DNA from: Chloroflexota bacterium | Lineage (GTDB): Bacteria > Chloroflexota > UBA11872 | Length of the DNA stretch: 64,000 bases | Direction of reading: 5' to 3' | Assembly (NCBI GenBank): GCA_022826485.1 | Contig: JAJDUU010000021.1 | Coordinates: 65,558-129,557 of the forward strand | Shown: positions 9,470 to 64,000 of the stretch, piece by piece | How the letters are laid out: every line of letters starts with the position of its first letter | How positions within the stretch are numbered: position 1 is the stretch's first letter | Position numbers and translations under genes: made by a program | Notes under the pieces: generated by a model | Databases searched by the model: none | Told to the model about the DNA's origin: nothing | Seen by the model: the letters and a program-made list of their open reading frames with translations, nothing else

Positions 9470-9536
9470 GACCCAGCCTGGGCAAGTTTGGAACCTGAAC
9501 CTACGCGAACTACGACGCCACTAGGTATTGACCGGA

Positions 9537-16978: not shown

Positions 16979-17929
16979 TTATTCGGCCTGCATCCAATGC
17001 CGATATTCGCTCCAAATGTCGTCTGGTCCCCTGTCCGGCTTGAAGACCAAGCGCCCCTGCCAACGGTACGCTTCGCCGGCCTGGCATTGCTTGATGACGA
17101 TGCCGAAGTCCCACGCCGGGTTGCGCGGCCCGCCCCCGGTCGGCTGGATGGCAAACCGCAGATGGTCATCCGTGCGCAGCATCAGCGCCAGCACCATGTT
17201 CCGCCAGCGGCCGAACATCACCGGCTCGACGTAGCGCAGGGGTTGGATGTTGTGCAGCAGGCGTCCCGCGGGATCCGGTTCGCCGGGCAGCAGCGCCGCT
17301 TCCCGCTCCGAGGCGAAGGCGCGTGCATCGTGCGGCGGCTCGGCCAGCGTCGCGGCCCTGTCGCTCTCCGCCCCTGCCCGAGGCCGGGCGCGAATGTAGG
17401 TGGTCTTGACCTCGGGCCGCCGGATATAGCAGGCCCAGAACAACCCCACCCAGTCGCCGGTGAACGAGCCTGGATGCGGGGACATCACGGTTTCCAGGTC
17501 GACGTAGTGGGGCGGTACGACTCTGAATGTGGTCTGCACGTCGACGCGTTGCGGTGGTTGGACGCGCGTCGTCAGGACTACGGTGGATTCGTCCACGCGC
17601 GTGAGGCTGCTGGGCGTGGGTGCGCCGCCGGAGCGCCCATCGACCCAGCGCGGTCGCATTGATGAGCCGGCGGCGTCGTAGACAAACTCGAAATTCAGGC
17701 CGCTTCCCCCGGCCACGCCGAAGATGTTCTCCGCCGGGCCGTGGCGGCTGTAGAGCTGTCGCATGCCGTTGTAGCCGGTGTACCTGTCGAAGCGAAAAGG
17801 GCCGTCTTCAAAGGTGCCGTCCTTGATCGCGGCCATGCGGGCGTCGTCCCGAGTCGGGGGGTCTGAAGCGTCGGCGTTGTCGACGATCTCGACGAACAGA
17901 TCGCCGGCGGTTATGAACTGGGTGCCCAC
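16979..17929 (-). CDS. Hypothetical protein (316 aa), divergent partner of the tandem paralog pair
   Basis: A long ORF on the opposite strand from no better-supported gene. I recognise no confident family. It shares a ~110-bp divergent region with the 18042 gene. Confidence 0.45.
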   Translation of the reverse strand: MGTQFITAGDLFVEIVDNADASDPPTRDDARMAAIKDGTFEDGPFRFDRYTGYNGMRQLYSRHGPAENIFGVAGGSGLNFEFVYDAAGSSMRPRWVDGRSGGAPTPSSLTRVDESTVVLTTRVQPPQRVDVQTTFRVVPPHYVDLETVMSPHPGSFTGDWVGLFWACYIRRPEVKTTYIRARPRAGAESDRAATLAEPPHDARAFASEREAALLPGEPDPAGRLLHNIQPLRYVEPVMFGRWRNMVLALMLRTDDHLRFAIQPTGGGPRNPAWDFGIVIKQCQAGEAYRWQGRLVFKPDRGPDDIWSEYRHWMQAE

Positions 17930-18041
17930 GCGCGCCCTCCAGTGCTGTCTCGTGGATGAGATAGCGTCTGATACGCTGCGCCGTCAACTGGTGGCCCGCG
18001 AAATCGACGCCGAGACGCGGGTCGGCGGAAGGGGTTGTGCC

Positions 18042-19847
18042 ATGGCTGGCGACGAGCGCGACCGCTTCGCGGACCGCTGGCTCTCGCGTTCCCCGATCTA
18101 TCTGACCGACCTGGACCGGTGCGAGCCTGCCGCGGCACTGGCCGACGTGCCGGCGTTGCGGCACTGGCGGAAGTTGGCCTTCTCCACCGACGACCTCGAG
18201 GGCACGATGCTGCTGGCGGGGCCACAGACCGCGGCGCCCACCATCACCTATCCGCTCGACGCGTCCGGCTGGCACGCCATCTCCGTTGGACTCGTGCGGT
18301 GCCATGCCGGAGGCCACCACACCCGGGCCAGCGAGCTGGAGCTTCGGCTGACGGATGACCGCGTGCCGACGGTGCTGGTGCTGCCGTCGCTGGCGGATCA
18401 CCATACCGACGAGCCGATGCCGGAGCACCGGGAAGTGGCCGAGCTGTTCTGGAAATACGCGGAGCTGGACGGACGACACCTGGAGCTCGGTCAGCCAGCC
18501 GCCCGCCTGAAGTCCGGCGATGAAGCCGCGTCGTTTGCCTGCGGCGCGGTGCACGTGGCGTATATCAAGCTCGTGCCGCTCACCGACGATGAGGCGGCCC
18601 TCGTCCAAGAAGACGGAAGCGGAGCCGACACGAAGCGACTGTTCGCGCACAACGACTCGCACGGTCCGCACTGGATCTGGCGGCTGACGTCGGCGGACGA
18701 GATTCGCCGCGAGATCGAGCCCTACCGCGATACCGATTTCACCCGCATGTACTGGGAAGCCGGCGGCGGCGACGAGGTCCACTACTTCTCCAAGATTGCG
18801 CACATCCCCACGTGCGAGGCAGTGCACGACTTCAACCGCCGCGGCGATCGGCTGCATGCCGAGAGCTGGCGCGAGTTCCGCGCCGCGGGAGTCGATCCAT
18901 TCGCCGTCGCCGTCGACCACACCCACGAGCTGGGCATGGAGTTCCACGCGGCCTGGCGAATCTCGGGGTTCCACTACCCGCCGCCCATCGACCACAACAA
19001 CTTCGGTGACACGTTCTACGACCGCCACCCGGAATGGCGCGGCGAGGATCGCGACGGCCGGCGCACGCCGATCATGGCCTACACCTACGCCGGCGTCCGC
19101 CAGTTCGCGGTCTCCCTGTTTCGCGAGATGGCGAAATATCCGATCGACGGCGTGTGTCCGCTATATAACCGGCGTCTGCCGCTGGTGGAGTACGAGCCGC
19201 CGTTGGTGGAAGGGTTCAAGCGCGAATTCGGTACCGACCCGCGGGAGTTGGACGAGCGCGATCCAACCTGGCTGGCCTACCGCTCGCGGATCCTCACCCA
19301 GTTCATGCGGGAGCTGCGCCAGGCGATGGACGAGGTGAGCCGCGAGCAGGGGCGGACGAAGCCAATCGCCGTGTCAGCGGTGGTGGAAGGCCGGGAGGCC
19401 GCCAACAGCTTCTTTGGCTGCGACCTCAAGACCTGGGCGCAGGAAGGCCTGGTGGACACGCTGATTCCCTACGTCTCGGACTGGGAGTCGCGCGGGAGCG
19501 TGGCGCCATGGACCGACGCGCGCGAGCTGGACTATTTCCTGGATGCGGTCGACGGGACGTCGTGCGTGCTGGCGCCGAACGTCATGCCGCGCTCGATGAG
19601 TCCGGAGGACTTTCGCCGCCGGGCCGCCACGATCTATGGGGCGGGGATCGAGCACCTGTTCTTCTGGGACTGCGCGGGTGGCGAGGGGCGGGCAAACTAC
19701 CGGCCGATGTGGAGCGCGGTACGTCGCCTGGGCCACGTGGACGAGGTCTTGGCGTGGCGGGACGCGGGAGAGCCGGAGTTGGGCTGGATCTCGTCGGATT
19801 TGCGAAGCGTGGGCGACTGGAGCACGGCCTATGACGACGCCGGGTAG
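18042..19847 (+). CDS. Large hypothetical protein, paralog A (possible TIM-barrel glycoside-hydrolase-like fold)
   Basis: ATG at 18042 (MAGDERDRFADRWLSRSPIYLTDLDRC…). It is colinear with paralog B along its whole length. Shared motifs: AYIKLVPL, FAHND-HG, YWEA, GxEFHA-[WY]R[IV][SA]GFH, YP[IV][DN]GV, NRRxPLxxYE, LVEGF, GLVDT[LV]IPY, CVLAPN-MPR. Confidence 0.6.
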   Translation: MAGDERDRFADRWLSRSPIYLTDLDRCEPAAALADVPALRHWRKLAFSTDDLEGTMLLAGPQTAAPTITYPLDASGWHAISVGLVRCHAGGHHTRASELELRLTDDRVPTVLVLPSLADHHTDEPMPEHREVAELFWKYAELDGRHLELGQPAARLKSGDEAASFACGAVHVAYIKLVPLTDDEAALVQEDGSGADTKRLFAHNDSHGPHWIWRLTSADEIRREIEPYRDTDFTRMYWEAGGGDEVHYFSKIAHIPTCEAVHDFNRRGDRLHAESWREFRAAGVDPFAVAVDHTHELGMEFHAAWRISGFHYPPPIDHNNFGDTFYDRHPEWRGEDRDGRRTPIMAYTYAGVRQFAVSLFREMAKYPIDGVCPLYNRRLPLVEYEPPLVEGFKREFGTDPRELDERDPTWLAYRSRILTQFMRELRQAMDEVSREQGRTKPIAVSAVVEGREAANSFFGCDLKTWAQEGLVDTLIPYVSDWESRGSVAPWTDARELDYFLDAVDGTSCVLAPNVMPRSMSPEDFRRRAATIYGAGIEHLFFWDCAGGEGRANYRPMWSAVRRLGHVDEVLAWRDAGEPELGWISSDLRSVGDWSTAYDDAG

Positions 19848-21615
19848 CGTGCCGCTCGACCGCCACACCGACCGCTGGCTTTCCGCTGCGCCGGTGTACC
19901 TGGCGGACCTGGACCGCTGCGCGCCGGCCGATGCACAGAGCTCCGAACCGGCGTTGCGGCGCTGGCGCGCGCTGCCGTTCACGGCCGAGGCCTGCGCCGG
20001 CACGATGCTGGTGGCCGGTCCCGAAACCGCGGCGCCCGACGTCACCTATCCCCTCGACGTGGAGGGTTGGCACGCAATCTCGATCGGCGTCTACGCCGAA
20101 ATGCACGGCGAGAGCCGCGCGATGCGCGCCCGACTCACGGGAGAGGCGTCCTTCACCTACCTGGCGACTCACCCCGACGAGGGCAACTTTCAGGCCGAGC
20201 ACCTGCTGGAGCGGTTCTGGAAAATCGCCGACTTGACGGATCGACAGATTGAGCTTGGACAGATCAGGCCCCGCGTCGGATCCGGTGACGAGGCCGGATC
20301 GTTCGTCTGCACACCGGCGAACATCGCCTATATCAAGCTGGTTCCGCTGTCACCGGCCGAGGTAGAGGCGCACCTGGCAGACGAGGCCCGCACGGACCGG
20401 CGGCGCATATTCGCGCACAACGACGCCCACGGCTACCTGTGGAACGGCGGGCCGCTCACGGTCGAAGAGATCCAGCGCGAGGTCGCCCCGTTCGCCGATT
20501 CGGACGTGGCGCGGATCTATTGGGAGGCCGCGGTCGGCGACCTGACGTTCTATCCCTCCAACATCGGCCACATGCCGACGGCCGACGGCGTGGAGGACTT
20601 CATACGCGTCGGCGATCTCACGCACGCGCGAGCCTGGCGGCACTTTCGCGACGAGGGAATCGACCCGCTGCGCATCGCCGCCGAGACCGCGCGGTCCGTC
20701 GGAATTGAGTTCCACGCCTCATACCGCGTTGCCGGTTTCCACTTTGCGCCGCCGATCTACGACGCGTGGAACGCCGGCGGGTTCTACCTGGACCATCCCG
20801 AGCTTCGCTGTGTGACACGCGACGGCACTCCGGCACCGCGCCTGTCGTATGCCTTCCCCGAGACGCGGGAGCTCGTGATTTCGCTCTTGCGAGAGATGGC
20901 GAGCTATCCGGTCAACGGCGTCGCGCTGCTGTTCAATCGCCGCCCGCCGCTCTTGGATTACGAGCAAACGTTGGTTGAGGGATTCCAGGCGCAATTCGGC
21001 ATGGACCCCCGCACGCTGGAGGAGCGCGACGAGCGCTGGCTGCGCTATCGGGCCGGCTTCCTGACCACATTCATGCGTGAGTTGCGCGCCGGACTTGACG
21101 CCACGGACCGCGAGCTCGGACGCACCGATCCCACGCAGATCTCGGCGGTCGTGCTGAGCAGCGAAGCCGAGAACCTCTACCGAGCCATCGACCTTCGCAC
21201 CTGGGTCGCTGAAGGCCTGGTGGACACGGTGATCCCCTATACCTCGGCGCCAAACCTCGACAGCGGCGCGGAGGCCTGGGGCGACCCGGCGTCGATCGAG
21301 TTTTTTACCGAGCTGGTCAGCGGGACCGACTGCGTGCTGGCGCCGAACCTGATGCCGCGCTACATGGCGCCCGCCGAACTGCGGCGACGCGCGCGCGAGC
21401 TCTACGACGCCGGCGTGACGCACCTCTTTGCCTGGGATGCCGTGGTCCTCGGCGGGCGCGTGCTGTTCAACGACTATTGGGACGCGCTGCGCCGGTTGGG
21501 CCATCGCGACGAGATCGAGGCCTGGATCGCAGCGGGCGAGCCATCGCTCGGCTCGACCACCATGCGCCTGTTGACGCTCGGCGACTGGGACATGTCCTAC
21601 GCCACGCCGGGCTAG
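19831..21615 (+). CDS. Large hypothetical protein, paralog B (tandem duplicate of 18042..19847)
   Basis: ATG at 19831 (MTTPGSVPLDRHTDRWLSAAPVYLADLDRC…). It overlaps the end of paralog A by 17 nt and has the same motif set as paralog A. Confidence 0.6.
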   Translation: MTTPGSVPLDRHTDRWLSAAPVYLADLDRCAPADAQSSEPALRRWRALPFTAEACAGTMLVAGPETAAPDVTYPLDVEGWHAISIGVYAEMHGESRAMRARLTGEASFTYLATHPDEGNFQAEHLLERFWKIADLTDRQIELGQIRPRVGSGDEAGSFVCTPANIAYIKLVPLSPAEVEAHLADEARTDRRRIFAHNDAHGYLWNGGPLTVEEIQREVAPFADSDVARIYWEAAVGDLTFYPSNIGHMPTADGVEDFIRVGDLTHARAWRHFRDEGIDPLRIAAETARSVGIEFHASYRVAGFHFAPPIYDAWNAGGFYLDHPELRCVTRDGTPAPRLSYAFPETRELVISLLREMASYPVNGVALLFNRRPPLLDYEQTLVEGFQAQFGMDPRTLEERDERWLRYRAGFLTTFMRELRAGLDATDRELGRTDPTQISAVVLSSEAENLYRAIDLRTWVAEGLVDTVIPYTSAPNLDSGAEAWGDPASIEFFTELVSGTDCVLAPNLMPRYMAPAELRRRARELYDAGVTHLFAWDAVVLGGRVLFNDYWDALRRLGHRDEIEAWIAAGEPSLGSTTMRLLTLGDWDMSYATPG

Positions 21616-21643: not shown

Positions 21644-22843
21644 GTGACGAGCGAGCCGCTGGTGGACGGACCGCGGGCCTGCGCCCTCGAGGAGTTCGAT
21701 GAGGTCCTCGATCTGCTCAACCACGTGTTCCGCGCCGGGTCCGACCAGAAAACGCAGACCGACTATCCGCTGATCTTCGATCCGGCGCGGCGCGAAAACA
21801 TGCGCGTGGTAAGCGTTGACGGCGCCGTTGTGGCGCACGTACCGGTGGCGCCGCGGGGCGTGGTCATCGACGGCGACGCGTTCACACTCGCCATCATCGG
21901 CGGAACGGTGACCCACCCGGATCATCGGCATCGCGGCTACGCGACCGCCTGCCTGCGGGACGGCGTCCGCATCATGGTCGAGCGCGGCTGGCCGGTCTCG
22001 GCGCTGTGGACGATCGAGCCGACGTATCCGTTCTATCGAAACTCAGGCTGGGAGGCGGTCGGGTCGCAGGGATGGATGTACACGCTGGCCGCGGATGACG
22101 CGGCGCGACTGCGGCCCAGCCACCACCGCATCGCCGTCTACGAACCCGGCAACGACGAGCATCTGAGCGCCATCCGCCGAATTCACGATCGCGAGCCGCT
22201 GCGCATCGCTCGCTCGACCGATGAGTACGCGGTCCTGTTCAGCCTGCCCAAGATGCACACTTTCCTAGCCTTCGAGGGTGATGAGGTCGCCGCCTACCTG
22301 ACGGTTGGACAGGGGACGAACAAGCCAGGTCTGGTCGAGGGCGGCGGCGACCGCCTAGCGCTAGAGGCGTTGGTGCGACGCGCGCGCGCCGAGTGGCCGG
22401 CAGACCAGGAACTCCAGGTCGTGCTGCCGCTCACGCCGTGCGCCCTGGGCGACGTGGTCGAGGCAATCAAGCCGGGGCAACGGCGGCCGGTGGAGAAGGC
22501 CAGCGGCGTCGGGTTTCAGATGATGCGGGTGAACGATCTCGGCTTGCTGCTGCGCCAACTAAAGAACCACCTGCGGCGACGGTCGCCGGGCATCCTCGGC
22601 GACGTGTGCATCGTGTGCGAGGACAGCGACGAGTCCGTGTCGCTGCACGTGCGCGACGGTGAGGTCGAAGTCAGCGCCGAGCGCTTGCCGGAGCCGGTCA
22701 CGTTGAGCCGCCGCCAACTGACGCAGCTGGTCTTTGGCGCGCATGCGTCCGTGCCGCCGCTGGAGCTAACGGGAGCGGCGGCCGCGCTGCTTGAAGCCCT
22801 GTTCCCGCTCTACGCGCCAATCTGGGAGATCGATCACTCATAG
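21644..22843 (+). CDS. GNAT-family N-acetyltransferase with C-terminal SCP2-like domain (Eis-like architecture)
   Basis: GNAT core (…LAIIGGTVTHPDHRHRGYATACLRDGVRIMVERG…). Its length (399 aa) and C-terminal region are consistent with the Eis-type layout. GTG start at 21644. Confidence 0.55.
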   Translation: MTSEPLVDGPRACALEEFDEVLDLLNHVFRAGSDQKTQTDYPLIFDPARRENMRVVSVDGAVVAHVPVAPRGVVIDGDAFTLAIIGGTVTHPDHRHRGYATACLRDGVRIMVERGWPVSALWTIEPTYPFYRNSGWEAVGSQGWMYTLAADDAARLRPSHHRIAVYEPGNDEHLSAIRRIHDREPLRIARSTDEYAVLFSLPKMHTFLAFEGDEVAAYLTVGQGTNKPGLVEGGGDRLALEALVRRARAEWPADQELQVVLPLTPCALGDVVEAIKPGQRRPVEKASGVGFQMMRVNDLGLLLRQLKNHLRRRSPGILGDVCIVCEDSDESVSLHVRDGEVEVSAERLPEPVTLSRRQLTQLVFGAHASVPPLELTGAAAALLEALFPLYAPIWEIDHS

Positions 22844-22859
22844 CGCGTCGCGGCAGCGA

Positions 22860-24338
22860 ATGGAGCATTCCGTGAGCCGTCCCAACATCCTGCTCATCGT
22901 CACCGACCAGCAGCGGGGCGACTGCCTCGGCTTGGCGGGTCACCCGGTGCTGCGGACGCCAAACATGGATTACATCGGCGGCGCCGGCACGCACTTCACC
23001 CGCGGGTACAGCGAGGTGCCGTCCTGCATTCCGGCGCGCCACGTGCTGATGTCGGGGCAAGCCGCGGACGTGAGCGGGATGGTGGGGTTCTACTACCGAT
23101 CCGACGAGTCGCCGTGGCGGCCGCCGGCAACGCTGCCCGGCGAGCTGCGCCGCGCCGGCTACGAGACGCGCCTCATCGGCAAGCTGCACCTGCAGCCGCG
23201 ACGCCGCCGCTGGGGGTTCGACGCCATGGAGCTGGCCGACGGCGTGGGCGGGGCCGACAACGACTACGTGGACTGGCTGCGCGAGCGCGTGCCCGACGAT
23301 CAACTCCAAGCCGCGCACGGCGTCGGCTCCAACAGCTGGGTCGGCCGGCCGTCGCACCTGCCGGAGCACCTGAGCTACTCGGCGTGGGTGGTCACACGGG
23401 CGCTGGAGTATCTGGAGAAGCGCGACCCGTCGACGCCGTTCTTTCTCAACCTCTCGTTCTTTCCGCCGCATCCTCCGCTCGCGCCGTCGCGCGTCTTCTA
23501 TGAGCGCTACGCCACGCTCGATCTCCCGGAGCCGGTGATTGGAGATTGGGTGGAGCCGTTGCCGCCGGGCGCATCGCGCGGGCTCGATCCCATCGGCGGC
23601 TCGCAGCGCCTGCATCTCGATCCGCTGACCATGCACTACTGCCGCGCGGCGTACTACGGGCTGATCAACGAGATCGACGCGCAGCTTGGCCGGCTATTCA
23701 ACGCCATTCGCGGCTCGTTGCTGACCAACACGTTCGTGATGTTCGTGTCCGACCACGGCGAGATGCTCGGCGATCACCACCTGTTCGCGAAGACCGAGCC
23801 GTTCGAGGCGTCCGCCCGGATCCCCTTCATGGCGATGGCGCCCCAGCCGGGACGGGGCAAGGTTAATGCCGAGTTTCCCTCGGGAATCACCTGCGACGCG
23901 CCGGTCGGCCTGCAAGACGTGATGCCCACGTTGCTGGACGCGGCCGGCGTGCCGATCCCGTCGGAGGTGACCGGTCGAAGCCTGCTGCCCTTCATGCGCG
24001 GCGCGCAGCCGGAATGGCGCGATGCCTTGCACGGCGAGCACGCCACCTGGCGCACGCCGGACAGCGGCACCCACTGGCTGGTGACGGCCACCCATAAGTA
24101 CATCTGGCACAGCCAGACCGGGCAAGAGCTCCTGTTCGATCTGGTGGCCGATCCGAATGAGCTGCACGACCTGTCCGGCGAGCAGGACCTCGAGCCGTGG
24201 CGTCGGGGAATGGTCGCGGCGCTGGCCGAGCGCCCGGAAGGTTTCACCGATGGGCGCCGGCTCATACCGGGCCAGCCGCATCGCGCGTTCGTACCGGGCA
24301 AGGGGCCGGTCGTCGAGTGGCCGGACGTGGGGCGCTGA
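22860..24338 (+). CDS. Sulfatase (formylglycine-dependent arylsulfatase family)
   Basis: NILLIVTDQQRGDCLG… and the sulfatase signature C-x-P-x-R (…VPSCIPARHVLMSG…). ATG at 22860. Confidence 0.8.
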   Translation: MEHSVSRPNILLIVTDQQRGDCLGLAGHPVLRTPNMDYIGGAGTHFTRGYSEVPSCIPARHVLMSGQAADVSGMVGFYYRSDESPWRPPATLPGELRRAGYETRLIGKLHLQPRRRRWGFDAMELADGVGGADNDYVDWLRERVPDDQLQAAHGVGSNSWVGRPSHLPEHLSYSAWVVTRALEYLEKRDPSTPFFLNLSFFPPHPPLAPSRVFYERYATLDLPEPVIGDWVEPLPPGASRGLDPIGGSQRLHLDPLTMHYCRAAYYGLINEIDAQLGRLFNAIRGSLLTNTFVMFVSDHGEMLGDHHLFAKTEPFEASARIPFMAMAPQPGRGKVNAEFPSGITCDAPVGLQDVMPTLLDAAGVPIPSEVTGRSLLPFMRGAQPEWRDALHGEHATWRTPDSGTHWLVTATHKYIWHSQTGQELLFDLVADPNELHDLSGEQDLEPWRRGMVAALAERPEGFTDGRRLIPGQPHRAFVPGKGPVVEWPDVGR

Positions 24339-30781: not shown

Positions 30782-31672
30782 ATGACTCAGTGCCATCGAC
30801 CTCCGCAGTTTTCCCTTGCGACGAGCATGTGGGGCGAAGTGCCAACGACAAGCCTCGCCGAGACTCTGTCGGATGTGACCGCAGCGAACTTTGAGGCGAT
30901 CGAGCTCTGGCCGCCGCTTTGTCCCCTGTTTTCCGACAAGATGCGCACCAACGCTCGAGAGGCGTTCGCGCGGACTAACGTTCGGCCGGACACGATGCAC
31001 GCGCCGCTCACGTCAACCGTGAAGCTCTCGGCGGTCGAGGAGCTCGACCGGCGCCTTGCGGTGTACGAGGTTGCCGCATGGCTGTCACCCTTTGCCGACC
31101 TCGGCGGCGACGTGGTGGTGATTCACCTGACGGGCGCCGACTTCAGCGACGAAGCGTCGCATGGCATCAACGTCGAAACGGCCGTCGATGCGGCCCGCCG
31201 GTCACTCGACGAGCTCTATACGATCGCCGATCGCCTGGGTCTGCGGATCGCCTGCGAAAACCTGATGGAGCGCGGCACACCGCGGCCGCTCTGTCGGATG
31301 GAGCAGTTGCGAGCGTTCGTCGACCCGTATCCCGCAACCGTCGGAATCTGCCTGGACACCGGACACGCGGTGGTCAACGGCCTCAATCCGGCGTCGGAGG
31401 CGCGCGCCGCGGGCGACCGGCTGATTGCGACGCACCTGCAGGACACCGATGGCATCGATGATCGGCATTGGGTGCCGGGCGCCGGGCGGATCAACTGGGA
31501 CGAGCTCGTGTCAGCCCTTCACGAGATTGACTACACCGGCAAGTGGACGTTCGAGCTGAGCGCGCGCGACAGCGATCCCGCATCCGTGGCAAGCGCCGCG
31601 ATGCAGGTGGCGTTGGTCTGGAGTGGTCAGGGAAGCGTGGATTCGGCGGATTTCAGCCGCCGAGCTGACTAG
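30782..31672 (+). CDS. Sugar phosphate isomerase/epimerase (xylose-isomerase-like TIM barrel)
   Basis: …FEAIELW…, …IACENLM… and …CLDTGHA… motifs. Confidence 0.6.
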   Translation: MTQCHRPPQFSLATSMWGEVPTTSLAETLSDVTAANFEAIELWPPLCPLFSDKMRTNAREAFARTNVRPDTMHAPLTSTVKLSAVEELDRRLAVYEVAAWLSPFADLGGDVVVIHLTGADFSDEASHGINVETAVDAARRSLDELYTIADRLGLRIACENLMERGTPRPLCRMEQLRAFVDPYPATVGICLDTGHAVVNGLNPASEARAAGDRLIATHLQDTDGIDDRHWVPGAGRINWDELVSALHEIDYTGKWTFELSARDSDPASVASAAMQVALVWSGQGSVDSADFSRRAD

Positions 31673-31804
31673 CACAGGCCGTCACGCCGGGCAATTCTGG
31701 ACCAGAAGGAATTCACAGCGGTATAGTCCGACGACAGGCGCCGGCAACACTGAGGTGGGTTTTTTGTCCCATCGGCAGGCCGGCCACATGGGGAGGGCAC
31801 ACGT

Positions 31805-33778
31805 ATGAGCCAACACTTACGCGCAGGCGTCTCGCGACGGCGCGTCCTCAAGGGCGCTGCCGCGGGACTGTTTGGCGCAGCCGGGGCAGCCGTGTTGGCG
31901 GCGTGCGGTGAAACGCAGGTCGTCACCAAGGAAGTCATCAAGGAAGTCCCGGTCGAGACGGTCGTGACCCGGGAAGTGGTCAAGGAAGTTCCGGTCGAGA
32001 CGGTCGTGACCAAGGAAGTCGTCAAGGAAGTCGCGGTCGAGAAGCTGGTGACCACCGAGGTCGTCAAGCAGGTCGAGGTCATCAAGGAAGTCCCGGTTGA
32101 GGTCGAGAAGGTCGTGACGAAGGAAGTCGAGGTCATCAAGGAAGTCACGGCCGAGATGATGATTCCTGAGGGTCCGATCAGCGGCGGCACGCTGAATCAC
32201 AGCGGCAGCGGCCCGAACCACCAGGACATCTTCAACCCGCTCAAGCAGGTCAGCAGCTCGCAGGCCTACATCACGGACTACGTGTTCATGCCCCTGTGGT
32301 ATGGCGACACGTGGGGCGCCGGTGACACGCCGGCCATGACGGGCGAGTGGGACAAGGGCGTGGCCAGCAGCTGGGACGAGGTCGAGCGGGCCCGCGTCTA
32401 CAACTTCCACCTCAACCCCGACGTCACCTGGCACGACCAGGTGCCGCTGACGGCGGACGACGTGCTGTTCGGCGCCAAGATGGGGCTGGACAAGAACTAC
32501 GGCTCGGGTCAGCACAAGAAGGCCTGGGGCCGGATCGAGGGCGCGGAAGCCTGGGGCGAGAACCCCACGGACAACGTGGAGGACGTTCCCGGCATCACCA
32601 AGCTGGACGAGATGACGGTGCAGATCGCGATCGATCGGCCCGACTCCGCCTGGTGGGCGAGCCGCGACTGGCACCTCCCGCCGATGGCCCGGCACCACTA
32701 CGAGGGTCTTGACCCGGCGACGGCAATCCAGACCCGGGCGCTGAACCCGCTGGGCAACGGCCCGATGATTTGGGAGCGCTACGTCACCCAGCAGTTCGCC
32801 GACATGACGGCGCACAAGGCCTTCGCGTACGGCGCGCCGTACGTCGATGACTACGTCGTCCGCTACGGTGAGCGAAACGCGCTGGACGCGGCCATGGAGG
32901 CCGGCGAGCAGGACTTCCACCGCGCCAGCAACATCGAGGCCTTCCAGCGACTCGCGAGCCTTGGACACCTGCGGCCATTCCCGCAGCGCTCGCCGTTCGG
33001 CGGGCACGTGTTCTTGAACCAGTCCGCCGAGATCTTCTCCGACATGACCCTCGAGCAGCAGTCGCTGATGATCGAGGCCATGGTGCGGGCAGTGGACCGG
33101 GACACGATCAACAACGAGCTCCACGCGGGCACGCTGTTCATCTCGGACTACATCTTCGAGCACGTGGCGCTGATGCAGGACCCGCCGGAAGGCACCTTCC
33201 GCGCCATGCCTTACGACCCGGACGCGGCGCGCGCCCTGGTCGAGGAGGCCCAGTGGGACTCCGAGAAGGAGATCCAGTGGATCAAGTGGGGGCCACCGAC
33301 GCCGACGGACCTGGCGCTCAAGAACTACTGGGAGCAGGTGGGCATCAAGGTTGAGTTCTTCCTGGTCGACGGCTCAGCGGTGATCGAGAAGCTGTACCAG
33401 GAGCGGGTCCACGACCTGGTCCTCGCCAACATGGGCGGCGACCAGGCCGTGGTGGATGCGTGTCTGCGCGTCTGCAGCGACCGGGTCTACGAGCTCGGCG
33501 GCTGGAACCACTCGAACATCAACCGCCCGTGGATCGACGAGGCCTACGCCGACATGTTCGCGGCGGAGGACAACGAGGCGCTGCGCGAGCGATGGATCGA
33601 ATTCGCCACGCGACTCCACTCCAAGGGCAACATGGTGGCCGGGCTGCTGTGGCGCGGTTCGCTGCGGAACCTGTATCACAGGCGTCTGCAGGGGGCGTTC
33701 TACATGCAGTTCTACGCCATGCCGGTGCACTCGCCGATCGAGCGGGTGTGGCTGGACGAGTACTGGGACGAGCGGTAG
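31805..33778 (+). CDS. ABC transporter substrate-binding lipoprotein, family 5 (peptide/oligosaccharide type), with repetitive linker
   Basis: Tat motif SRRRVLKGAAAGLFGAAGAAVLAAC plus lipobox Cys. A ~75-aa KEVPVETVVT repeat linker precedes an SBP_bac_5-like body. There is an RBS GGAGG about 10 nt upstream of ATG 31805. Confidence 0.8.
   Translation: MSQHLRAGVSRRRVLKGAAAGLFGAAGAAVLAACGETQVVTKEVIKEVPVETVVTREVVKEVPVETVVTKEVVKEVAVEKLVTTEVVKQVEVIKEVPVEVEKVVTKEVEVIKEVTAEMMIPEGPISGGTLNHSGSGPNHQDIFNPLKQVSSSQAYITDYVFMPLWYGDTWGAGDTPAMTGEWDKGVASSWDEVERARVYNFHLNPDVTWHDQVPLTADDVLFGAKMGLDKNYGSGQHKKAWGRIEGAEAWGENPTDNVEDVPGITKLDEMTVQIAIDRPDSAWWASRDWHLPPMARHHYEGLDPATAIQTRALNPLGNGPMIWERYVTQQFADMTAHKAFAYGAPYVDDYVVRYGERNALDAAMEAGEQDFHRASNIEAFQRLASLGHLRPFPQRSPFGGHVFLNQSAEIFSDMTLEQQSLMIEAMVRAVDRDTINNELHAGTLFISDYIFEHVALMQDPPEGTFRAMPYDPDAARALVEEAQWDSEKEIQWIKWGPPTPTDLALKNYWEQVGIKVEFFLVDGSAVIEKLYQERVHDLVLANMGGDQAVVDACLRVCSDRVYELGGWNHSNINRPWIDEAYADMFAAEDNEALRERWIEFATRLHSKGNMVAGLLWRGSLRNLYHRRLQGAFYMQFYAMPVHSPIERVWLDEYWDER
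31915..32150 (+). repeat. In-frame tandem coding repeats encoding (K/R)EV(P)VE(T)VVT linker in SBP1
   Basis: DNA unit ~gtcaaggaagtcccggtcgagacggtcgtgaccaaggaagtc repeated with variants. The protein reads VVTKEVIKEVPVETVVTREVVKEVPVETVVTKEVVKEVAVEKLVTTEVVKQVEVIKEVPVEVEKVVTKEVEVIKEV. Confidence 0.8.
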
Positions 33779-33824
33779 CGCCCAGCGCGATGCCGCTGCC
33801 CTGAGCAGCGGCACCCGCGGAGTT

Positions 33825-33860
33825 CGAAGGGCCGGCGGTCGAATGACCGCCGGCCCTTCG
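33825..33860 (+). terminator. Intrinsic-terminator-like hairpin after SBP1 (14-bp perfect stem, 8-nt loop; no U-tract)
   Basis: cgaagggccggcgg-tcgaatga-ccgccggcccttcg. There is a second 8-bp stem hairpin at ~33792-33815. Confidence 0.5.
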
Positions 33861-34228
33861 GCGTTGCGCCGTCTCCGCGGTGAGCCGCGGCGGTTCAGCC
33901 GTTAGGCACTGTTGACGAGTTTCCGCTTTCTAAACTACTTTGCCCCAAAGTGCGGGCTGACGTTGGGCGGATCGATGCCGAATTCAGGCATTCCAACGGA
34001 CAACTGGGACCGCACGCGGCCTGCGCCGCGAGGCCGACGAGCCATTAGGCCGGGCCAGCCGGACAAGCCCTACTTCAACGTTCTTCCGGCCGCCCACTCC
34101 TCCACAGCACACCGTTCCGCGGTCTATCGCCGTCTGACTGAAGGGAGGAGGTCCAGACCCAAACGCGGATAGCCGCTGGAGCCGTGGTCGGACACTGAAT
34201 CTGTCGCACTGTGCAAACACGAGAGGGA

Positions 34229-36292
34229 ATGCCGATGCTTGACGTTGGTAAGCGAATGATGACCCGCCGAAACCTGATTCGGGGAGCGAGCGCCGGCCTC
34301 TTTGGGGCAGCGGGCGCGGCCGTGCTCGCCGCGTGCGGCGAGGCGCAGGTCGTCGAGCGGGTCGTCACGCAGGAAGTGATCAAAGAGGTTCCGGTCGAGA
34401 CCATCGTGACCAAGGAAGTGGTCAAGGAGGTCCCGGTCGAGTCGGTGGTGACCAAGGAGGTCGTCAAGGAAGTCCCGGTCGAAAAGATCGTGACCCAGCA
34501 GGTCGTCCAACAGGTCGTCAAGGAAGTCCCGGTCACGATCGAGAAGGTGGTTGAGGTCGAGAAGGTCGTCACGGTCGAGGTCGAGAAGGTGATCGAAGTC
34601 GAGAAGGTCGTGACCGTCGAGGTCGAGAAGGTCATCGAGACAGAGAAGATCGTCGAGCGGCCCACGTCCGTGCAGGCCGGTCAGCCGGTCTACGGCGGGG
34701 ACCTGAGGGTCAGCTGGGGCGGCGGGATCGCCGGCGCGAGCTTCAACAGCTACACGCAAATCTCCAGCGACCAGGCCATCGTCAACGTGGAGGTCGGCAC
34801 TTCGCTGATCCACGGCGCCAGTTGGGGCGACGGCCCGTTCGCGTCGCTTGAAACCCGCTTCGGCGACGGCGTGGCCAAGTCCTTCGAAGAGGTGGCGCCG
34901 GAAGAGTCCTATATCTTCCACCTCGACGAGCGCTTCACCTTCCACGACGGCGCGCCGGTGACGGCGGACGACTTCATGTACACGTTCCACATCGTGACGC
35001 ACCCGGACTGGGGCGTGGGATATGGCTCCCGGCAGCTCGAACAGCTGAAGGGATTCAAGGCGTGGGCTGAGAACCCGACGGACAACATCGAAGACACCGG
35101 CGGGGTGAAGAAGATCGACAACATGACGATCCAGCTCACCACCGACGGCGTGCAGGAGCCCTTCTGGGCGAGCCCGAACCCCATGCAGCCCATGCCCAAG
35201 CACATCTATGAGACGCTGGACCCAGCCACGGCGTTCGACACGATGGCGCTGCAACCGGTCGGCAATGGGCCGTTCAAGTTCGAGCGCTACGTCGACCAGC
35301 AGTTCGCCGAGCTGAGCCGCAACGACGCCTATCCCTACGGTGCGCCGTGGGTGGACCGCTACATCGTGCGCTATGGCGACCCGGACGCGCTCGACGCCGC
35401 GACGGAGGCGGGCGAGCTCGACTTCCTGCGCACCAGCAGCGTCGAGGCCTATGCGCGCCTGGCCGGCATGCCGCACATGCAGGCACAGCCCATGCGATCG
35501 CCGTTTGCGAGCTTGATCTTCCTCAACCACAACATCTTTGCGGAGAAGTGGCCGGACGTGAACGTCTCGCTGATGACCGAGGCGATGGTTATCGGGGCCG
35601 ACCGTGTGTCGATCGCCAACAACATCATGGCCGGCACGCTGTTTGTGGATGACTACCACTTCAGCCATATCCGGTTCATGCAGGACGTGCCGATGGACGC
35701 CTATCGGCCGCTGCCTTACAACCCGGAAGCGGCCAAGGCCCTGCTCGAGGAGTCCGGCTGGAACCCCGACGACACGCTCACATGGCTCGGGTGGTTCGCG
35801 CCGCGTCCGCAAGACCTCGCGCTGATGGCGAACTGGCTCGACATGGGCCTGAAGGTGGAGTTCGAAAGAGTCGACCGTGCCGTGGTGGTCGAGCACCTGT
35901 GGGAGACCGGCGCCAACGAAATGGTGGTGGCCAACCTGGGCGGCTCGCAGGACGTGGGTGACGCGTTCCGGCGGATCGGATGCGACAACATCTGGCCCAA
36001 CGGCTACAACTACCACCACACCTGCTTCCCGGAGATCGACGCGCTCTATCAGGCGGCGTTCGACGCGCCGAATAAGGAGGCGCTGAAGGAGGCCTGGATC
36101 GAGATCTCCCGCTACCTGCATGGTCGCGGGACCATGATCGCCGGGCAGCTGTGGAAGCACTCGCTGCTGTTCCTCTACCACCGACGCGTGAGCGGACCGT
36201 GGTGGATGAACAACTACGCGATTCCGGCGCGCAGGCCCACCCACCGCGTGTGGCTTGACCCGCGCTGGTCCGGTAGGGACTACGTCGGGTAG
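34229..36292 (+). CDS. ABC transporter substrate-binding lipoprotein, family 5, paralog of 31805..33778, with longer repetitive linker
   Basis: MPMLDVGKRMMTRRNLIRGASAGLFGAAGAAVLAAC, then a ~105-aa KEVPVE/VEVEKV repeat linker and an SBP body colinear with SBP1 (…NPTDN[VI]ED…, …L[NQ]P[LV]GNGP…, …YG[AP][PW]VD[DR]Y[VI]VRYG…). The RBS is gagaggg before ATG 34229. Confidence 0.8.
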   Translation: MPMLDVGKRMMTRRNLIRGASAGLFGAAGAAVLAACGEAQVVERVVTQEVIKEVPVETIVTKEVVKEVPVESVVTKEVVKEVPVEKIVTQQVVQQVVKEVPVTIEKVVEVEKVVTVEVEKVIEVEKVVTVEVEKVIETEKIVERPTSVQAGQPVYGGDLRVSWGGGIAGASFNSYTQISSDQAIVNVEVGTSLIHGASWGDGPFASLETRFGDGVAKSFEEVAPEESYIFHLDERFTFHDGAPVTADDFMYTFHIVTHPDWGVGYGSRQLEQLKGFKAWAENPTDNIEDTGGVKKIDNMTIQLTTDGVQEPFWASPNPMQPMPKHIYETLDPATAFDTMALQPVGNGPFKFERYVDQQFAELSRNDAYPYGAPWVDRYIVRYGDPDALDAATEAGELDFLRTSSVEAYARLAGMPHMQAQPMRSPFASLIFLNHNIFAEKWPDVNVSLMTEAMVIGADRVSIANNIMAGTLFVDDYHFSHIRFMQDVPMDAYRPLPYNPEAAKALLEESGWNPDDTLTWLGWFAPRPQDLALMANWLDMGLKVEFERVDRAVVVEHLWETGANEMVVANLGGSQDVGDAFRRIGCDNIWPNGYNYHHTCFPEIDALYQAAFDAPNKEALKEAWIEISRYLHGRGTMIAGQLWKHSLLFLYHRRVSGPWWMNNYAIPARRPTHRVWLDPRWSGRDYVG
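34340..34665 (+). repeat. In-frame tandem coding repeats encoding KEVPVE.VVT / VEVEKV linker in SBP2
   Basis: VVTQEVIKEVPVETIVTKEVVKEVPVESVVTKEVVKEVPVEKIVTQQVVQQVVKEVPVTIEKVVEVEKVVTVEVEKVIEVEKVVTVEVEKVIETEKIV. Confidence 0.8.
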
Positions 36293-36387: not shown

Positions 36388-37995
36388 TTAGTCCTCGACG
36401 ACCGCCTCCAGCCGGCGAACCAAAGTCGCACCGCTCTCCGCGTCAGAGGTGCGCCCGTAGAACGTGAGATAGCAGATTCCCAGCGGGGCGTGCTCAATTG
36501 GAACGCGACGCTGCCGATCCCCAACGCTAACGTCGGCCGCCTGCTCGGCGACGTTCCAGGAGACCGTTACGGGCACCCATGCACCCGCGGGCACGAGGTC
36601 CGCGTCCAGGCCGATGTCTATGGCCCCGTTCCGCCGGCGGTCCCTGGGGTCCCAATAGGTCTCGTCGAGCACCAGGTCCACGCCCGACGAGGACTCGTCG
36701 CGCCGCAGCTGGAAGCTCAGCCTGCCGCGCTCGGCGAAGGGGAAGTTGCGCTCGGCCCCGAACAGGTCCTCGCCATCGCTCTGCAGGCGCAGCGCATGTT
36801 CCTCGTCGAGCAGCACCGTCTGCACGGCCGTCGCGCCGCTGAACGACCAGCCCGCCAGTCCGTTGACAAAGTCCTCGCGATCGCTGGTCTCGTCCAGGCG
36901 ATTGGGATCGACATAGACGTACTGGCAGTCTGCCCGCTCGCCGCCCGAATGGTGGCCGAACTGCACCAGGACGTCGCCTTCGGGCAGCTCCGCAAACCGC
37001 GGATAGCCAACCCGGGCGCCGTCGGGCTCGTGCCCGATCGTCCGCACGATCTCACGATAGCCGCGCCACGTGGCGCCGTTGTCGTGCGAAACCGCGACGT
37101 TGAAGACGTGGCGGCACCAAGACTCGGTGGGATAGTCGGCCCACTCCGAGAGCATGTCGGAGGCGAAGGGCGGTCCGATCCCGTTCGTCCACACGAACAG
37201 CAACCGCCCGTCACGCAGCCGCAGCGCCTCGCCGGGGGAGCTTGAAGACTTGAAGCGGCTGGGCTGCGAGGGGGACCAGATGCGCCCGTCTTCGGAAAAC
37301 GACTCGTAGAAACACCCGAGCTGCGTGCGAATCAGCATCCACACGCGACCACCATCGAGCTCGGCCACCACCGGTTCAACGGCGCCGGAGTGGCTGTGCT
37401 GCCCGCCTGAAGCGACCGGAAGATGGGTGGAGTCGTGCCCCCAGGTGCGCCCGCCGTCGTCGGAGTAGCACGACTTGGAGACGTATTTCCCCACGGCGCG
37501 TTCGACGTCGAAGTACTCCAGCGGAAGCACGATGCGGCCATTGGCGAGGTGCGCCACATTCATGATCGCCGCGGTGAACTCCTCGCCGTAGTCGAGTCGC
37601 ACCGGGCCTTCCCACGTGGCGCCGCCATCGCGGGACACGACGTGGTACACGTCCGTGCGCTGCTCGTGGAGCTTTGGATCCTCACGATCCTCAGGCCACT
37701 TCAAGAACCGCATGCCGAAGAGGTGAATGTCACCTTGACGGTCGACGAAGTTGATGCAGCCTTCCCAGCAGCCCAGGCCCATGGGAAGCTCCATGATCAC
37801 CTGGCGGCTCTCCCACTCGATGGGTCGTCCGCGCCCGTACTTGACGGTGAGGTATTCGGGAACCCACGGGTCGTCGAAGGCGCCGGATTCGAGCGAGTGA
37901 TGCAGCACCTTGCCCCGCGTGGACGCACTCATGTAGCGGCCATCCGGGAGGACGCTGATCTGTCCAGGCGTTGGGTGACGGTCGGCGAGGATCAT
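36388..37995 (-). CDS. BNR-repeat glycoside hydrolase (exo-alpha-sialidase-like)
   Basis: Three S-x-D-x-G-x-T-W BNR motifs (SRDGGATW, SDDGGRTW, SHDNGATW). The start is ATG 37995 or TTG 38022. No signal peptide is seen. Confidence 0.7.
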   Translation of the reverse strand: MILADRHPTPGQISVLPDGRYMSASTRGKVLHHSLESGAFDDPWVPEYLTVKYGRGRPIEWESRQVIMELPMGLGCWEGCINFVDRQGDIHLFGMRFLKWPEDREDPKLHEQRTDVYHVVSRDGGATWEGPVRLDYGEEFTAAIMNVAHLANGRIVLPLEYFDVERAVGKYVSKSCYSDDGGRTWGHDSTHLPVASGGQHSHSGAVEPVVAELDGGRVWMLIRTQLGCFYESFSEDGRIWSPSQPSRFKSSSSPGEALRLRDGRLLFVWTNGIGPPFASDMLSEWADYPTESWCRHVFNVAVSHDNGATWRGYREIVRTIGHEPDGARVGYPRFAELPEGDVLVQFGHHSGGERADCQYVYVDPNRLDETSDREDFVNGLAGWSFSGATAVQTVLLDEEHALRLQSDGEDLFGAERNFPFAERGRLSFQLRRDESSSGVDLVLDETYWDPRDRRRNGAIDIGLDADLVPAGAWVPVTVSWNVAEQAADVSVGDRQRRVPIEHAPLGICYLTFYGRTSDAESGATLVRRLEAVVED

Positions 37996-38276
37996 CGGGA
38001 ACCCCCAGGTCCCGCCCGGCAATCGGACTTCATGCTCCGGATATCAAAGTTCGCTGCCATCACGGGATCCCTCGCCTTCCTGTATCTGGGACGAGTTTGC
38101 GGGCCACAACCCCAATGTCGCGACACTCCAGATTCAGCCGCGTGGCAGGTTCCGTCAAGCGCGTACGCTCGTGCTCCCGAACTCGGGTCATCTGCCAGAT
38201 GAGACGGCCGCGCGTGGAAGCTTGGAAGAGTGCGCGGTCTCCCGTTTGAACTCAAGGGCGATGCACAGAAATAATC

Positions 38277-62996: not shown

Positions 62997-64000
62997 ATGC
63001 ATCGGTTTCGAGCAGCATTCATCGTCCTGATCGTTCTGGCGCTCACGGCCTGCGGCGAGGCGGAGAGCTCAGCCGAATCCCTTGACTTCGGCGACCGACC
63101 GATGGCCGCGCCGGCAGTGGCTATGGCCACGGAATCAGAGGCCATGGCCGTGCGCGAGGTGCCGGTCGAGGTCGAGGTCATCCGCGAGGTGCCGGTTGAA
63201 GTCGCGGTCGAGAAGGTGGTCGAGAAGATGGTCACCGCGGCCCCGGCGCCGGCAATCGCGCCGGCGGCAGCCACGCCGCAATCGCTCGACGCCGGTGTGG
63301 TCGAGCGCCAGATCATCCGCACCGGCACGCTCAGCGTCGTCGTCGCCGAGCTTGCGGCCGCAGTGACCCAGGTTGACGACATCATGGCGGGCATCCCCGG
63401 AGCGTTCGTCGCGGCATCGAACATCCAGCAGGACGACCCGCGGCGCGTCAGCACGATCACCGTGCGCGTACCCGTCGAGGCGTTCGACGCCACGCTGGCC
63501 GCGCTGCGCAACATCGGCGCCGAGGTGATCGACGAGGACATCCGCAGCCAGGACGTCACGGCGCAGTACACCGACCTGACCGCCCGGCTGCGCAACGCCA
63601 CCGCCGCGGAGCAGCAGTTGCTCGACATTCTCACCCGCGCGCAGAGCGTGCAGGACACCATCGAGGTGCAGCGCGAGCTGACGGACGTGCGCGAGCGCAT
63701 CGAGGTGCTCCAGGGCCAGCTCAATCTGCTGACCAACCAGACCTCGCTGGCCACGATCGTGCTGCGCCTGCATCCGGCAGCGGACCTGATTGTGACGCGC
63801 GAGGTCCCTAGCCACTTCCGCATGCACGACCAGACCCACCTGGGCCTGACGGTGCGCAACGACGGCACGGTGGATCTGAAGCAGGTGGAGGTCATCGACC
63901 GGCTGGATGCGGGCATGATCTTCCTGGCCGCCGGCGACGGCGGCGTCTACGACGCAGCCGCGCACACGGTGTCGTGGACGATCGACCGGCTGGGTCCCGG
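62997..64000 (+). CDS. Lipoprotein with REVPVEVEV repeat linker and DUF4349-like coiled-coil body (partial; runs off window end)
   Basis: My own translation from ATG 62997: MHRFRAAFIVLIVLALTACGEAESS… (lipobox LTAC), …AVREVPVEVEVIREVPVEVAVEKVVEKMV…, then …RQIIRTGTLSVVVAEL… and …AQYTDLTARLRNATAAEQQLLDIL…. There is no stop before 64000. This ORF is absent from the supplied track. Confidence 0.5.
   Translation, partial: MHRFRAAFIVLIVLALTACGEAESSAESLDFGDRPMAAPAVAMATESEAMAVREVPVEVEVIREVPVEVAVEKVVEKMVTAAPAPAIAPAAATPQSLDAGVVERQIIRTGTLSVVVAELAAAVTQVDDIMAGIPGAFVAASNIQQDDPRRVSTITVRVPVEAFDATLAALRNIGAEVIDEDIRSQDVTAQYTDLTARLRNATAAEQQLLDILTRAQSVQDTIEVQRELTDVRERIEVLQGQLNLLTNQTSLATIVLRLHPAADLIVTREVPSHFRMHDQTHLGLTVRNDGTVDLKQVEVIDRLDAGMIFLAAGDGGVYDAAAHTVSWTIDRLGP

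Follow-up and report, generated by a model that had tools for sequence, protein, structure and literature searches.

A 14-residue valine-rich repeat stalk behind the lipobox of Chloroflexota binding lipoproteins: a candidate extended tether

Disordered N-terminal linkers are represented by the tethers of Borrelia surface lipoproteins and the linkers of Escherichia coli lipoproteins. Gram-positive lipoprotein linkers (Parageobacillus) average 17 +/- 11 aa (PMC13068155). The kind of element described here, an N-terminal linker behind a lipidated Cys, is already well known; what is new is a longer version composed of conserved 14-aa V/E/K/P repeats, a module that is shared by at least five binding-protein folds. 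It was encountered in a 64,000-nucleotide stretch of DNA from a Chloroflexota bacterium (assembly GCA_022826485.1, contig JAJDUU010000021.1, positions 65,558 to 129,557; hereafter the window), in which two adjacent plus-strand genes, p1 and p2, each encode a family-5 solute-binding lipoprotein with such a stalk, and a third gene, p3, encodes a lipoprotein with a shorter repeat. Like the linkers of other bacterial lipoproteins, the stalk lies directly behind the lipidated Cys, is predicted to be non-globular, and stands between anchor and folded domain; unlike them it is 5-10 times longer (84-110 aa, with relatives up to ~186 aa), is made of 14-aa tandem repeats, is rich in Val, Glu and Lys rather than in Gly, Ser, Ala and Pro, and is conserved in sequence across unrelated proteins. 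It is interpreted here, with moderate confidence, as a modular, non-globular and probably extended tether between the lipid anchor and the folded ectodomain.

The p1 gene (31805..33778, plus strand; an open reading frame (ORF) of 657 aa) begins with a signal peptide (31805..31906) that contains the putative twin-arginine motif VSRRRVLKG and the lipobox LAAC, the Cys34 codon of which lies at 31904-31906. The stalk, as delimited by Tandem Repeats Finder (TRF), unit identities, AlphaFold2 (AF2) and composition, comprises residues 35-118 (84 aa; 31907..32158), and a mature OppA/DppA/NikA-like (cluster C) binding domain follows at 32159..33775 (PF00496, AF2, Foldseek). The p2 gene (34235..36292, plus strand; 685 aa from the ATG at 34235) has its signal peptide at 34235..34336 (putative twin-arginine motif MTRRNLIRG, lipobox LAAC), its Cys codon (residue 34) at 34334-34336, and a stalk of residues 35-144 (110 aa; 34337..34666) recognized by TRF, repeat families and AF2. 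An upstream GTG at 34211 is also open, and start-site comparison shows p2 orthologs beginning at MLDVGK. The h-region is identical in the two proteins (GLFGAAGAAVLAAC) and is modeled by AF2 as a helix (residues 11-22 of p1 and 11-32 of p2); at the lipobox both read C-G-E-(T/A)-Q before passing into the low-complexity array, such that the repeat sets in 5 residues past the Cys.

The p3 gene (62997..64000, plus strand) extends past the window end and encodes a lipoprotein with DUF4349 (PF14257; E=3.8e-40, 138 bits vs cutoff 27.7) and DUF11 (PF01345); it matches P0357, a protein of 578 aa at full length that has both families, at 100%. The codon for Cys19 of its lipobox, LTAC, lies at 63051-63053, and the short repeat, VREVPVEVEVIREVPVEVAVEKVVEKMVT, occupies residues 52-80 (~29 aa; 63150..63236; TRF period 30). 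This REVPVEV-type segment (REVPVEVEVIREVPVEVAVEKVVEKMVT) thus begins at residue 52, 32 residues past the Cys. A preliminary description of the locus had placed the repeat directly after the lipidated Cys in all three lipoproteins, at lengths of about 75, 105 and 30 aa; the placement stands for p1 and p2 but not for p3, and the lengths, now measured at 84, 110 and ~29 aa, were close for p3 and somewhat short for the other two.

Upstream of each of the three lipoboxes lie a positively charged n-region and a hydrophobic h-region, and each lipobox agrees with the pattern [LVI][ASTVI][GAS]C. The model for twin-arginine translocation (Tat) signals, TIGR02811, scored below threshold on p1 (E=0.0016, 18.7 bits vs cutoff 48.45), while the RR motifs of p1 and p2 fit the pattern (S/T)RRxFLK by eye; the n-region of p3, MHRFRAAF, has no RR pair. 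Lipidation, and Tat export of p1 and p2, are predictions from sequence. In a lipobox screen of the called genes in the window, p1, p2 and p3 were the only convincing lipoproteins.

The p1 and p2 stalks consist of 14-residue units, VVTKEVVKEVPVET. In p1, three good units of the form VVTKEV(I/V)KEVPVET are followed by degenerate ones, and in p2 the proximal units read VVTKEVVKEVPVE(T/S) and the distal units VEKVVTVEVEKVIE. At the DNA level, TRF reports one array in p1 (31918-32068; period 42, 3.6 copies, 84% matches, score 211) and two in p2 (34371-34495; period 42, 3.0 copies, 81% matches, score 166; and 34539-34654; period 42, 2.8 copies, 83% matches, score 162). These are the three top-scoring arrays of the 64-kb window; the array of p3 (63153-63209; period 30, 1.9 copies, 88% matches) scores 93, and the best array outside the three genes scores 59. 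Six-frame matches to [KRQ]EV[PAE]VE likewise fall inside p1, p2 and p3 in 9 of 10 cases.

In composition the stalks of p1 and p2 are 36% Val, 22-23% Glu, 12-13% Lys and 9-12% Thr, with a sequence entropy of 2.67 bits vs 4.18 bits in the folded domain and a lag-14 autocorrelation of V/I of 0.52-0.60. Beta-branched residues make up 51-52%, the better-preserved units have one Pro per 14 residues, and G+S+A+N+D together reach only 3-4%, with Gly nearly absent. The fraction of charged residues is 0.35-0.37 at a net charge per residue of -0.08, and a kappa of ~0.05, more than 2 standard deviations below shuffled sequences, reflects a very even mixing of acidic with basic residues. Fully stretched, the chain would measure 26-37 nm (contour length), vs an estimated coil end-to-end distance of ~7-8 nm.

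Two antisense ORFs (31669-32190 and 34075-34665, minus strand) lie exactly over the stalk repeats; they are T/S-rich (…TSLMTSTSFVTTFSTSTGTS…), owe their length to the periodic GTC/GAG/AAG codons that they mirror, and could be miscalled as genes. They were rejected as such, the plus-strand frames having a third-position GC content (GC3) of 0.89-0.90 and Pfam support.

The stalk is absent from Pfam, NCBIfam, the PDB and the searched literature. Scans of p1, p2 and p3 against Pfam and NCBIfam at E<=0.1 gave nothing over the stalk, the only families scoring being SBP_bac_5 or DUF4349/DUF11, and a phmmer search with the stalk gave 0 matches among all PDB chain sequences at E<=10. Collagen-like or wall-binding repeats (SLH, LysM, CW_binding, SPOR, collagen GXY), one of which the stalk might have turned out to be, were rejected for want of any model match and with Gly nearly absent. 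Among papers retrieved with sequence strings (EVPVE, KEVPV, KEVIKEV, VVEKEVV and others) one on articulins alone was relevant, and literature on Chloroflexi lipoprotein or solute-binding-protein linkers yielded no description of the stalk. AF2, run with alignments of 57 and 52 sequences, modeled the binding domains of p1 and p2 with a predicted local distance difference test (pLDDT) score mostly >90, and the stalks at ~30 (29-34 in p2), DSSP assigning no secondary structure to residues 16-116 (p1) or 16-144 (p2). Structure prediction, suggested beforehand as a check for an extended beta or polyproline II-like conformation, therefore assigns no secondary structure to the stalk, and the proposal of a non-globular spacer next to the anchor is supported by this result and by the unrelated ectodomains that carry the stalk.

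For understanding how widely the module is used, one genome per GTDB species was scanned for two KEVPVE units 14 codons apart, which gave at least 116 loci (8 kb was taken around the matches); the genome counts given here are among the matches listed. Sixty-nine loci belong to Chloroflexota, Dehalococcoidia or SAR202, the rest mainly to Saprospiraceae and other Bacteroidota, together with a few spirochaetes, Clostridia, Bacilli, Mollicutes, Saccharibacteria and one alphaproteobacterium. In the Chloroflexota the motif was found in 71 ORFs, and a lipobox Cys lies within 50 residues upstream in 64 of them. In the remaining 7 a lipobox is missing nearby, and where these were inspected the repeat comes after a hydrophobic stretch resembling a membrane helix. 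They include vWA/YfbK-type proteins (L019:2634-4070, L044:5096-7081, L092:2-1360, L104:259-1005 and L020:4666-6489, with the stalk directly after …NWLPVMVTGGAVAVAASAVLVAG…), so that the stalk can also be preceded by a membrane anchor other than a lipid. Pfam assigned, among 66 Chloroflexota ORFs, SBP_bac_5 to 28, SBP_bac_1 to 15, SBP_bac_8 to 5, OpuAC to 5, SBP_bac_6 to 2, SBP_bac_11 to 2 and vWA families to 6. In other phyla a nearby lipobox occurs in 1 of 47 motif ORFs, the arrays are internal, and the proteins are heterogeneous (HHH_5, OmpA, SPOR, caspase and others). Post-anchor use on many unrelated ectodomains is thus, on these sequences, a Chloroflexota habit in the sample, while the motif itself is not lineage-specific; the lineage specificity claimed for the repeat in the preliminary description holds, in the sample, for its position behind a lipobox and fails for KEVPVE repeats as such, which occur in Saprospiraceae, spirochaetes, Clostridia, Mollicutes and Saccharibacteria.

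Protein searches with the stalk alone and with full-length p2 gave more than 100 metagenomic proteins, from Chloroflexi/Chloroflexota wherever the source names them, in which stalks behind the lipobox range from ~16 to 186 aa. The stalk also stands ahead of Peripla_BP_6-type proteins (P0161, P0166) and of the SBP_bac_8 protein P0168. Chloroflexota orthologs of p3 have one to several (R/K)EVPVEV units in the linker before the domain (one in P0370, more in P0372-P0374); in distant DUF4349 proteins the repeat is vestigial or absent, and those of Gemmataceae or Actinomycetota have Ala/Pro/Gly/Ser linkers instead. A phmmer search of the stalk against 1.84 billion representatives returned 162 matches at E<=1e-3, a figure unfit as a census because of low-complexity score correction and database size, and not used for counts.

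Several sequences met in these searches are worth recording. Very long EVIKEVPVEVIKEVEV arrays, none with a lipobox, occur in L003, L007, L013, L016, L017, L024 and other Saprospiraceae (e.g., L007:3946-7491); upstream sequence in several of these proteins is coiled-coil-like by eye, and the arrays combine the same repeat chemistry with an entirely different architecture. An HHH_5 (helix-hairpin-helix) domain stands at the end of 6 of 46 non-Chloroflexota ORFs. In a Bacteroidota repeat protein (L002:894-4298, minus strand) Pfam places EAD9 (effector-associated domain 9; E=1.7e-8) at residues 737-759 inside the repeat region, which may be a low-complexity artefact of the model. P0007, P0052, P0022 and P0067, of 180-190 aa, have KEVPVEKIVE arrays and no signal peptide or lipobox, and one is labelled 'surface protein G' by its source.

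The Vlp and Vsa lipoproteins of Mycoplasma have a lipobox followed by in-frame tandem repeats whose copy number depends on the strain; they are essentially all repeat, have no ligand-binding domain, and undergo fast size and antigenic variation through near-perfect DNA repeats. The stalk proteins resemble them in having tandem repeats of variable copy number behind a lipobox, but their units share 62-90% identity, stalk length is largely fixed within a given ortholog cluster, and the repeats lead into a conserved domain of the transporter type. The possibility of a mycoplasma-type size-variable lipoprotein was rejected, there being no near-identical DNA repeats and the protein not being mainly repeat. 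The best three p1 units are 86-90% identical in DNA and later ones 38-74%, while copies of the p2 repeat families show 62-79% identity to their reference copy. The near-perfect 30-45-bp repeats of the preliminary description were therefore not found (TRF gives 81-88% matches), and the ease of length change through slippage was overstated.

Length does vary, and where it does the stalk is the site. In five clusters at 90% identity the length after the stalk is constant in nearly all full-length members (531, 532, 537, 536 and 533 aa), one cluster-3 member of 575 aa being the exception, and therefore nearly all length difference sits in the stalk, which within clusters measures 92 vs 78 aa (exactly one unit), 119/121/125, 62-73, 116/118 and 72 vs 88 aa. 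The conserved folded domain after the stalk spans 531-541 aa. A 28-aa insertion, a duplicate of the stalk sequence next to it, distinguishes P0077 from P0084, and one stalk length is common to 10 of the 12 proteins in the p1 cluster. One partial member of the p2 cluster, P0303 (P0073 cluster), is labelled 'Gammaproteobacteria bacterium' at NCBI, all others being Chloroflexota, and this is probably a binning error in the source metagenome-assembled genome (MAG). A protein identical to p1 is on record from ENA contig KELL22-1 scaffold_75.

Selection on the stalk was evaluated against L081, a locus on a 3.19-Mb Chloroflexota MAG contig that is syntenic with the window at ~90% DNA identity. The ratio of nonsynonymous to synonymous rates (dN/dS), estimated from 84-110 codons and thus to be read with caution, is 0.09 in the p2 stalk, at a synonymous divergence (dS) of 0.40, and 0.06 in the p2 domain; in p1 it is 0.66 in the stalk and 0.27 in the domain, the higher stalk value arising mainly because the last unit has been remodelled. 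The p2 stalk is under purifying selection: synonymous sites drift and amino acids are kept. Ongoing expansion and contraction, as first proposed, is consistent with close relatives that differ in the stalk, even by one 14-aa unit, whereas the p2 ratio argues for conserved length and sequence and against rapid flux.

The N-terminal part also seems to move between genes. From signal peptide to stalk (the first 95 residues; window 31829-32113), p1 and P0168 (SBP_bac_8/1) are 69% identical, with no similarity beyond, and they share the odd degenerate unit …VE(K/R)LVTTEVVKQ…, which suggests exchange of an N-terminal cassette between unrelated binding-protein genes. Similarly, L053:5139-7280 (CBDEVI010000002.1, a contig also carrying L081) is a non-syntenic paralog whose domain is 92% DNA-identical to p1, but which resembles p2 in its signal and in the proximal part of its stalk; at ~108 aa the stalk is also longer, and the gene looks like a recombinant. 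The two patterns together suggest that the N-terminal cassette moves or recombines between binding-protein genes. A test for gene conversion between p1 and p2 by third-position identity was uninformative, GC3 being ~0.9 everywhere.

These patterns could also mean that the stalk does little by itself and is a tolerated low-complexity expansion, with a signal-peptide-plus-stalk cassette spreading by recombination or gene conversion and with length shifting by slippage. The idiosyncratic unit order shared by p1 and P0168 on unrelated domains, the hybrid composition of L053, the unit-sized indels between close relatives and the relaxed dN/dS of the p1 stalk would all be accommodated. Units of the identity seen here are, however, a poor slippage substrate; the dS and dN/dS of the p2 stalk indicate selection on the protein rather than recent homogenisation; lengths are stable within ortholog clusters; and post-anchor placement recurs, in the 64 of 71 cases above, across divergent Chloroflexota and different signal types. 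A stalk with little or no function is accordingly judged quite improbable.

A different question is whether the units form structure. Articulins, proteins of euglenoid and ciliate membrane skeletons, contain VPVP--V-V-V- 12-mers with alternating charges, have ~30% beta-sheet, and form filaments (PMC2120578). They resemble the stalk in their Val/Pro repeats, alternating acidic and basic residues, membrane-adjacent position, and a composition favouring beta or extended structure, but are eukaryotic and cytoplasmic, with a period of 12, more Pro, and filaments, where the stalk has a period of 14, one Pro per unit, and is exported. Identity with articulins was rejected for an exported bacterial lipoprotein of period 14; the resemblance is compositional, and homology is not shown. 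By this analogy, the V/I/T-rich 14-mers might pair with one another, or with components of a wall or surface layer (S-layer), to give an ordered rod, sheet or palisade that holds many ectoproteins at a defined height. The high beta-branched content, strict lag-14 periodicity and alternating V-x-V runs such as EVPVEVEVI are in keeping with pairing, as are stalks of p1 and p2 that are more conserved than the domains, the purifying selection on the p2 stalk, and the independent recruitment of the motif in unrelated proteins of several phyla. AF2 nevertheless gives no secondary structure with alignments of 52-57 sequences, there is no similarity to solved structures or curated domains, homologs range in stalk length from ~16 to 186 aa, and unit order and type vary so freely that a precise lattice is hard to envisage; a structure-forming module is therefore considered unlikely. 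A broader form of the proposal, in which the (V/I)KEVPVE-type 14-mer would be a semi-rigid rod, or a beta-pairing module that contacts other copies of itself, the wall or the S-layer, serving as a shared 'height-setting' device of dozens of Chloroflexota ectoproteins per genome, recruited convergently by Saprospiraceae, spirochaetes, Mollicutes and Clostridia for other spacer or scaffold roles, is more doubtful still.

Solute-binding lipoproteins of archaea and actinobacteria have Ser/Thr/Pro-rich linkers that are often glycosylated and not periodic. They share with the stalk its position and its association with ABC binding proteins that are often Tat-exported lipoproteins, and differ in composition, glycosylation and lack of periodicity; linkers of such a type occur in L075 and L090. 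There, Chloroflexota lipoproteins (two ORFs in L075, one in L090) with the same CGE after the lipobox have Gly/Pro/Ser/Thr/Ala-rich linkers, so that these genomes have at least two types of linker. Glycosylated Ser/Thr-rich linkers are likewise known in binding proteins of other monoderms, and the stalk could by comparison be mainly a site of Thr O-glycosylation, or a charged protease-resistant shield, rather than a setter of distance. Thr does recur at set places in the repeat, and the stalk has hardly any of the residues typical of flexible loops open to proteases, but related stalks often have K, E, R or Q in place of Thr and many variants (EVIKEVPVEVVVEK) are entirely without it, such that modification or protection as the main role appears very improbable.

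The reading of the stalk as a tether is preferred because it lies between anchor and domain, is predicted to be non-globular, is found on unrelated ectodomains, and concentrates the length variation. In the proposed mechanism, export through Tat-type signals (p1 and p2) or a Sec-type signal (p3) would be followed by lipidation of the lipobox Cys, and the 84-110-residue V/E/K/T/P stalk would then run from the lipid in the membrane to the folded ectodomain. An expanded, fairly stiff chain, neither a collapsed coil nor a floppy Gly/Ser linker, is suggested because the stalk is rich in beta-branched residues, has one Pro in each of the better-preserved units, almost lacks Gly, Ser and Ala, and has evenly mixed charges. 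The binding domain could thereby reach several nm out with the stalk as a coil and up to ~26-37 nm with it fully stretched, collecting ligand across a wall or pseudo-periplasm and still returning to a membrane transporter. Gain or loss of units would adjust the length, and each ortholog group would largely keep its own.

Charged low-complexity segments thought to span the envelope as extended rods are known in the Glu-Pro/Lys-Pro spacer of TonB and in wall-spanning Pro-rich regions of Gram-positive surface proteins. These are likewise charged, Pro-containing and of low complexity, and differ from the stalk in having transmembrane-helix or LPXTG sortase anchors, another repeat chemistry and other partners. 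Chloroflexota are regarded as monoderm (PMC13319060), and cryo-electron tomography of Tepidiforma (Chloroflexota, Dehalococcoidia) revealed a periplasm of 40 nm in which a peptidoglycan layer of 20-30 nm lies beneath an S-layer (PMC10284905); by analogy, the reach of a stretched stalk would fit the scale of the wall zone in cultivated Chloroflexota.

Several points weigh against the tether. A monoderm envelope with a thick wall or S-layer is assumed for this organism by analogy with other Chloroflexota. AF2 is blind to intermolecular or ligand-induced structure. A content of 36% Val with strict periodicity is unusual for a purely disordered spacer, and the p1 and p2 stalks are ~83% identical in amino acids while the domains are only ~45% identical, a hint that the sequence itself matters. 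Of 10 further lipoprotein-like ORFs in the Chloroflexota neighbourhoods retrieved, 4 have no linker or one rich in Ala, Pro, Ser and Thr, and the p2 homologs P0098, P0100 and P0172 have stalks of 0-19 aa, so that one set length spanning the envelope is not something such proteins require in general. Finally, no ABC permease or ATPase genes were found near p1 and p2 among the called genes scanned in the window. Genes for solute-binding proteins are commonly encoded far from those of their transporters, and missing neighbours do not exclude transport.

The folded part of these proteins is, from its modeled structure, an ordinary cluster C binding protein with a bilobed fold. PF00496 (SBP_bac_5) matches p1 at residues 185-548 (E=3.3e-39, 135.5 bits) and p2 from residue 220 (E=3.5e-44, 151.9 bits), both against a cutoff of 32.4, and Foldseek against the PDB gives 5isu as the best match for the folded part of p1 (E=9.4e-32, target-normalised template-modelling score 0.85), the PDB matches of the domain including CtaP, AppA, NikZ, MppA and OppA (E ~1e-31 to 1e-29). 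The neighbours of p1 and p2 are a PFK, a xylose-isomerase-like TIM barrel and a BNR/sialidase-like protein. The last two, along with two GHL10-like proteins and a sulfatase, surround the two genes (window 30782-31672, 36388-38022, 17775-21612 and 22770-24335), a setting that may point to uptake of glycan-derived substrates rather than peptides. Elsewhere in the window (7244-9520, minus strand), one ORF carries CopC and CopD together with a cytochrome c domain (cbb3-type) at the C terminus, behind a Sec-type signal ending in AHA; its 'LLAC' lies inside the h-region of that signal, and it was therefore not counted as a fourth lipoprotein.

Oceans, sponges, sediments and bioreactors all harbour abundant Chloroflexota, yet the group is difficult to culture and its envelope is poorly understood. 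The stalk would be a handy marker of exported lipoproteins in MAGs, and would provide a natural valine-rich, well-mixed polyampholyte spacer whose stiffness and length are measurable and which could be reused in protein engineering. It also flags a database gap, the repeat being present in at least 118 ORFs over several phyla with no Pfam, NCBIfam or PDB entry. Were the units a structural element after all, they would constitute an unrecognised, widespread repeat class with its own biophysics. If the tether interpretation is true, a conserved, unusually long and repeat-built tether on a large share of substrate-binding lipoproteins would offer a genomic read-out of the distance from the membrane at which these bacteria capture nutrients.

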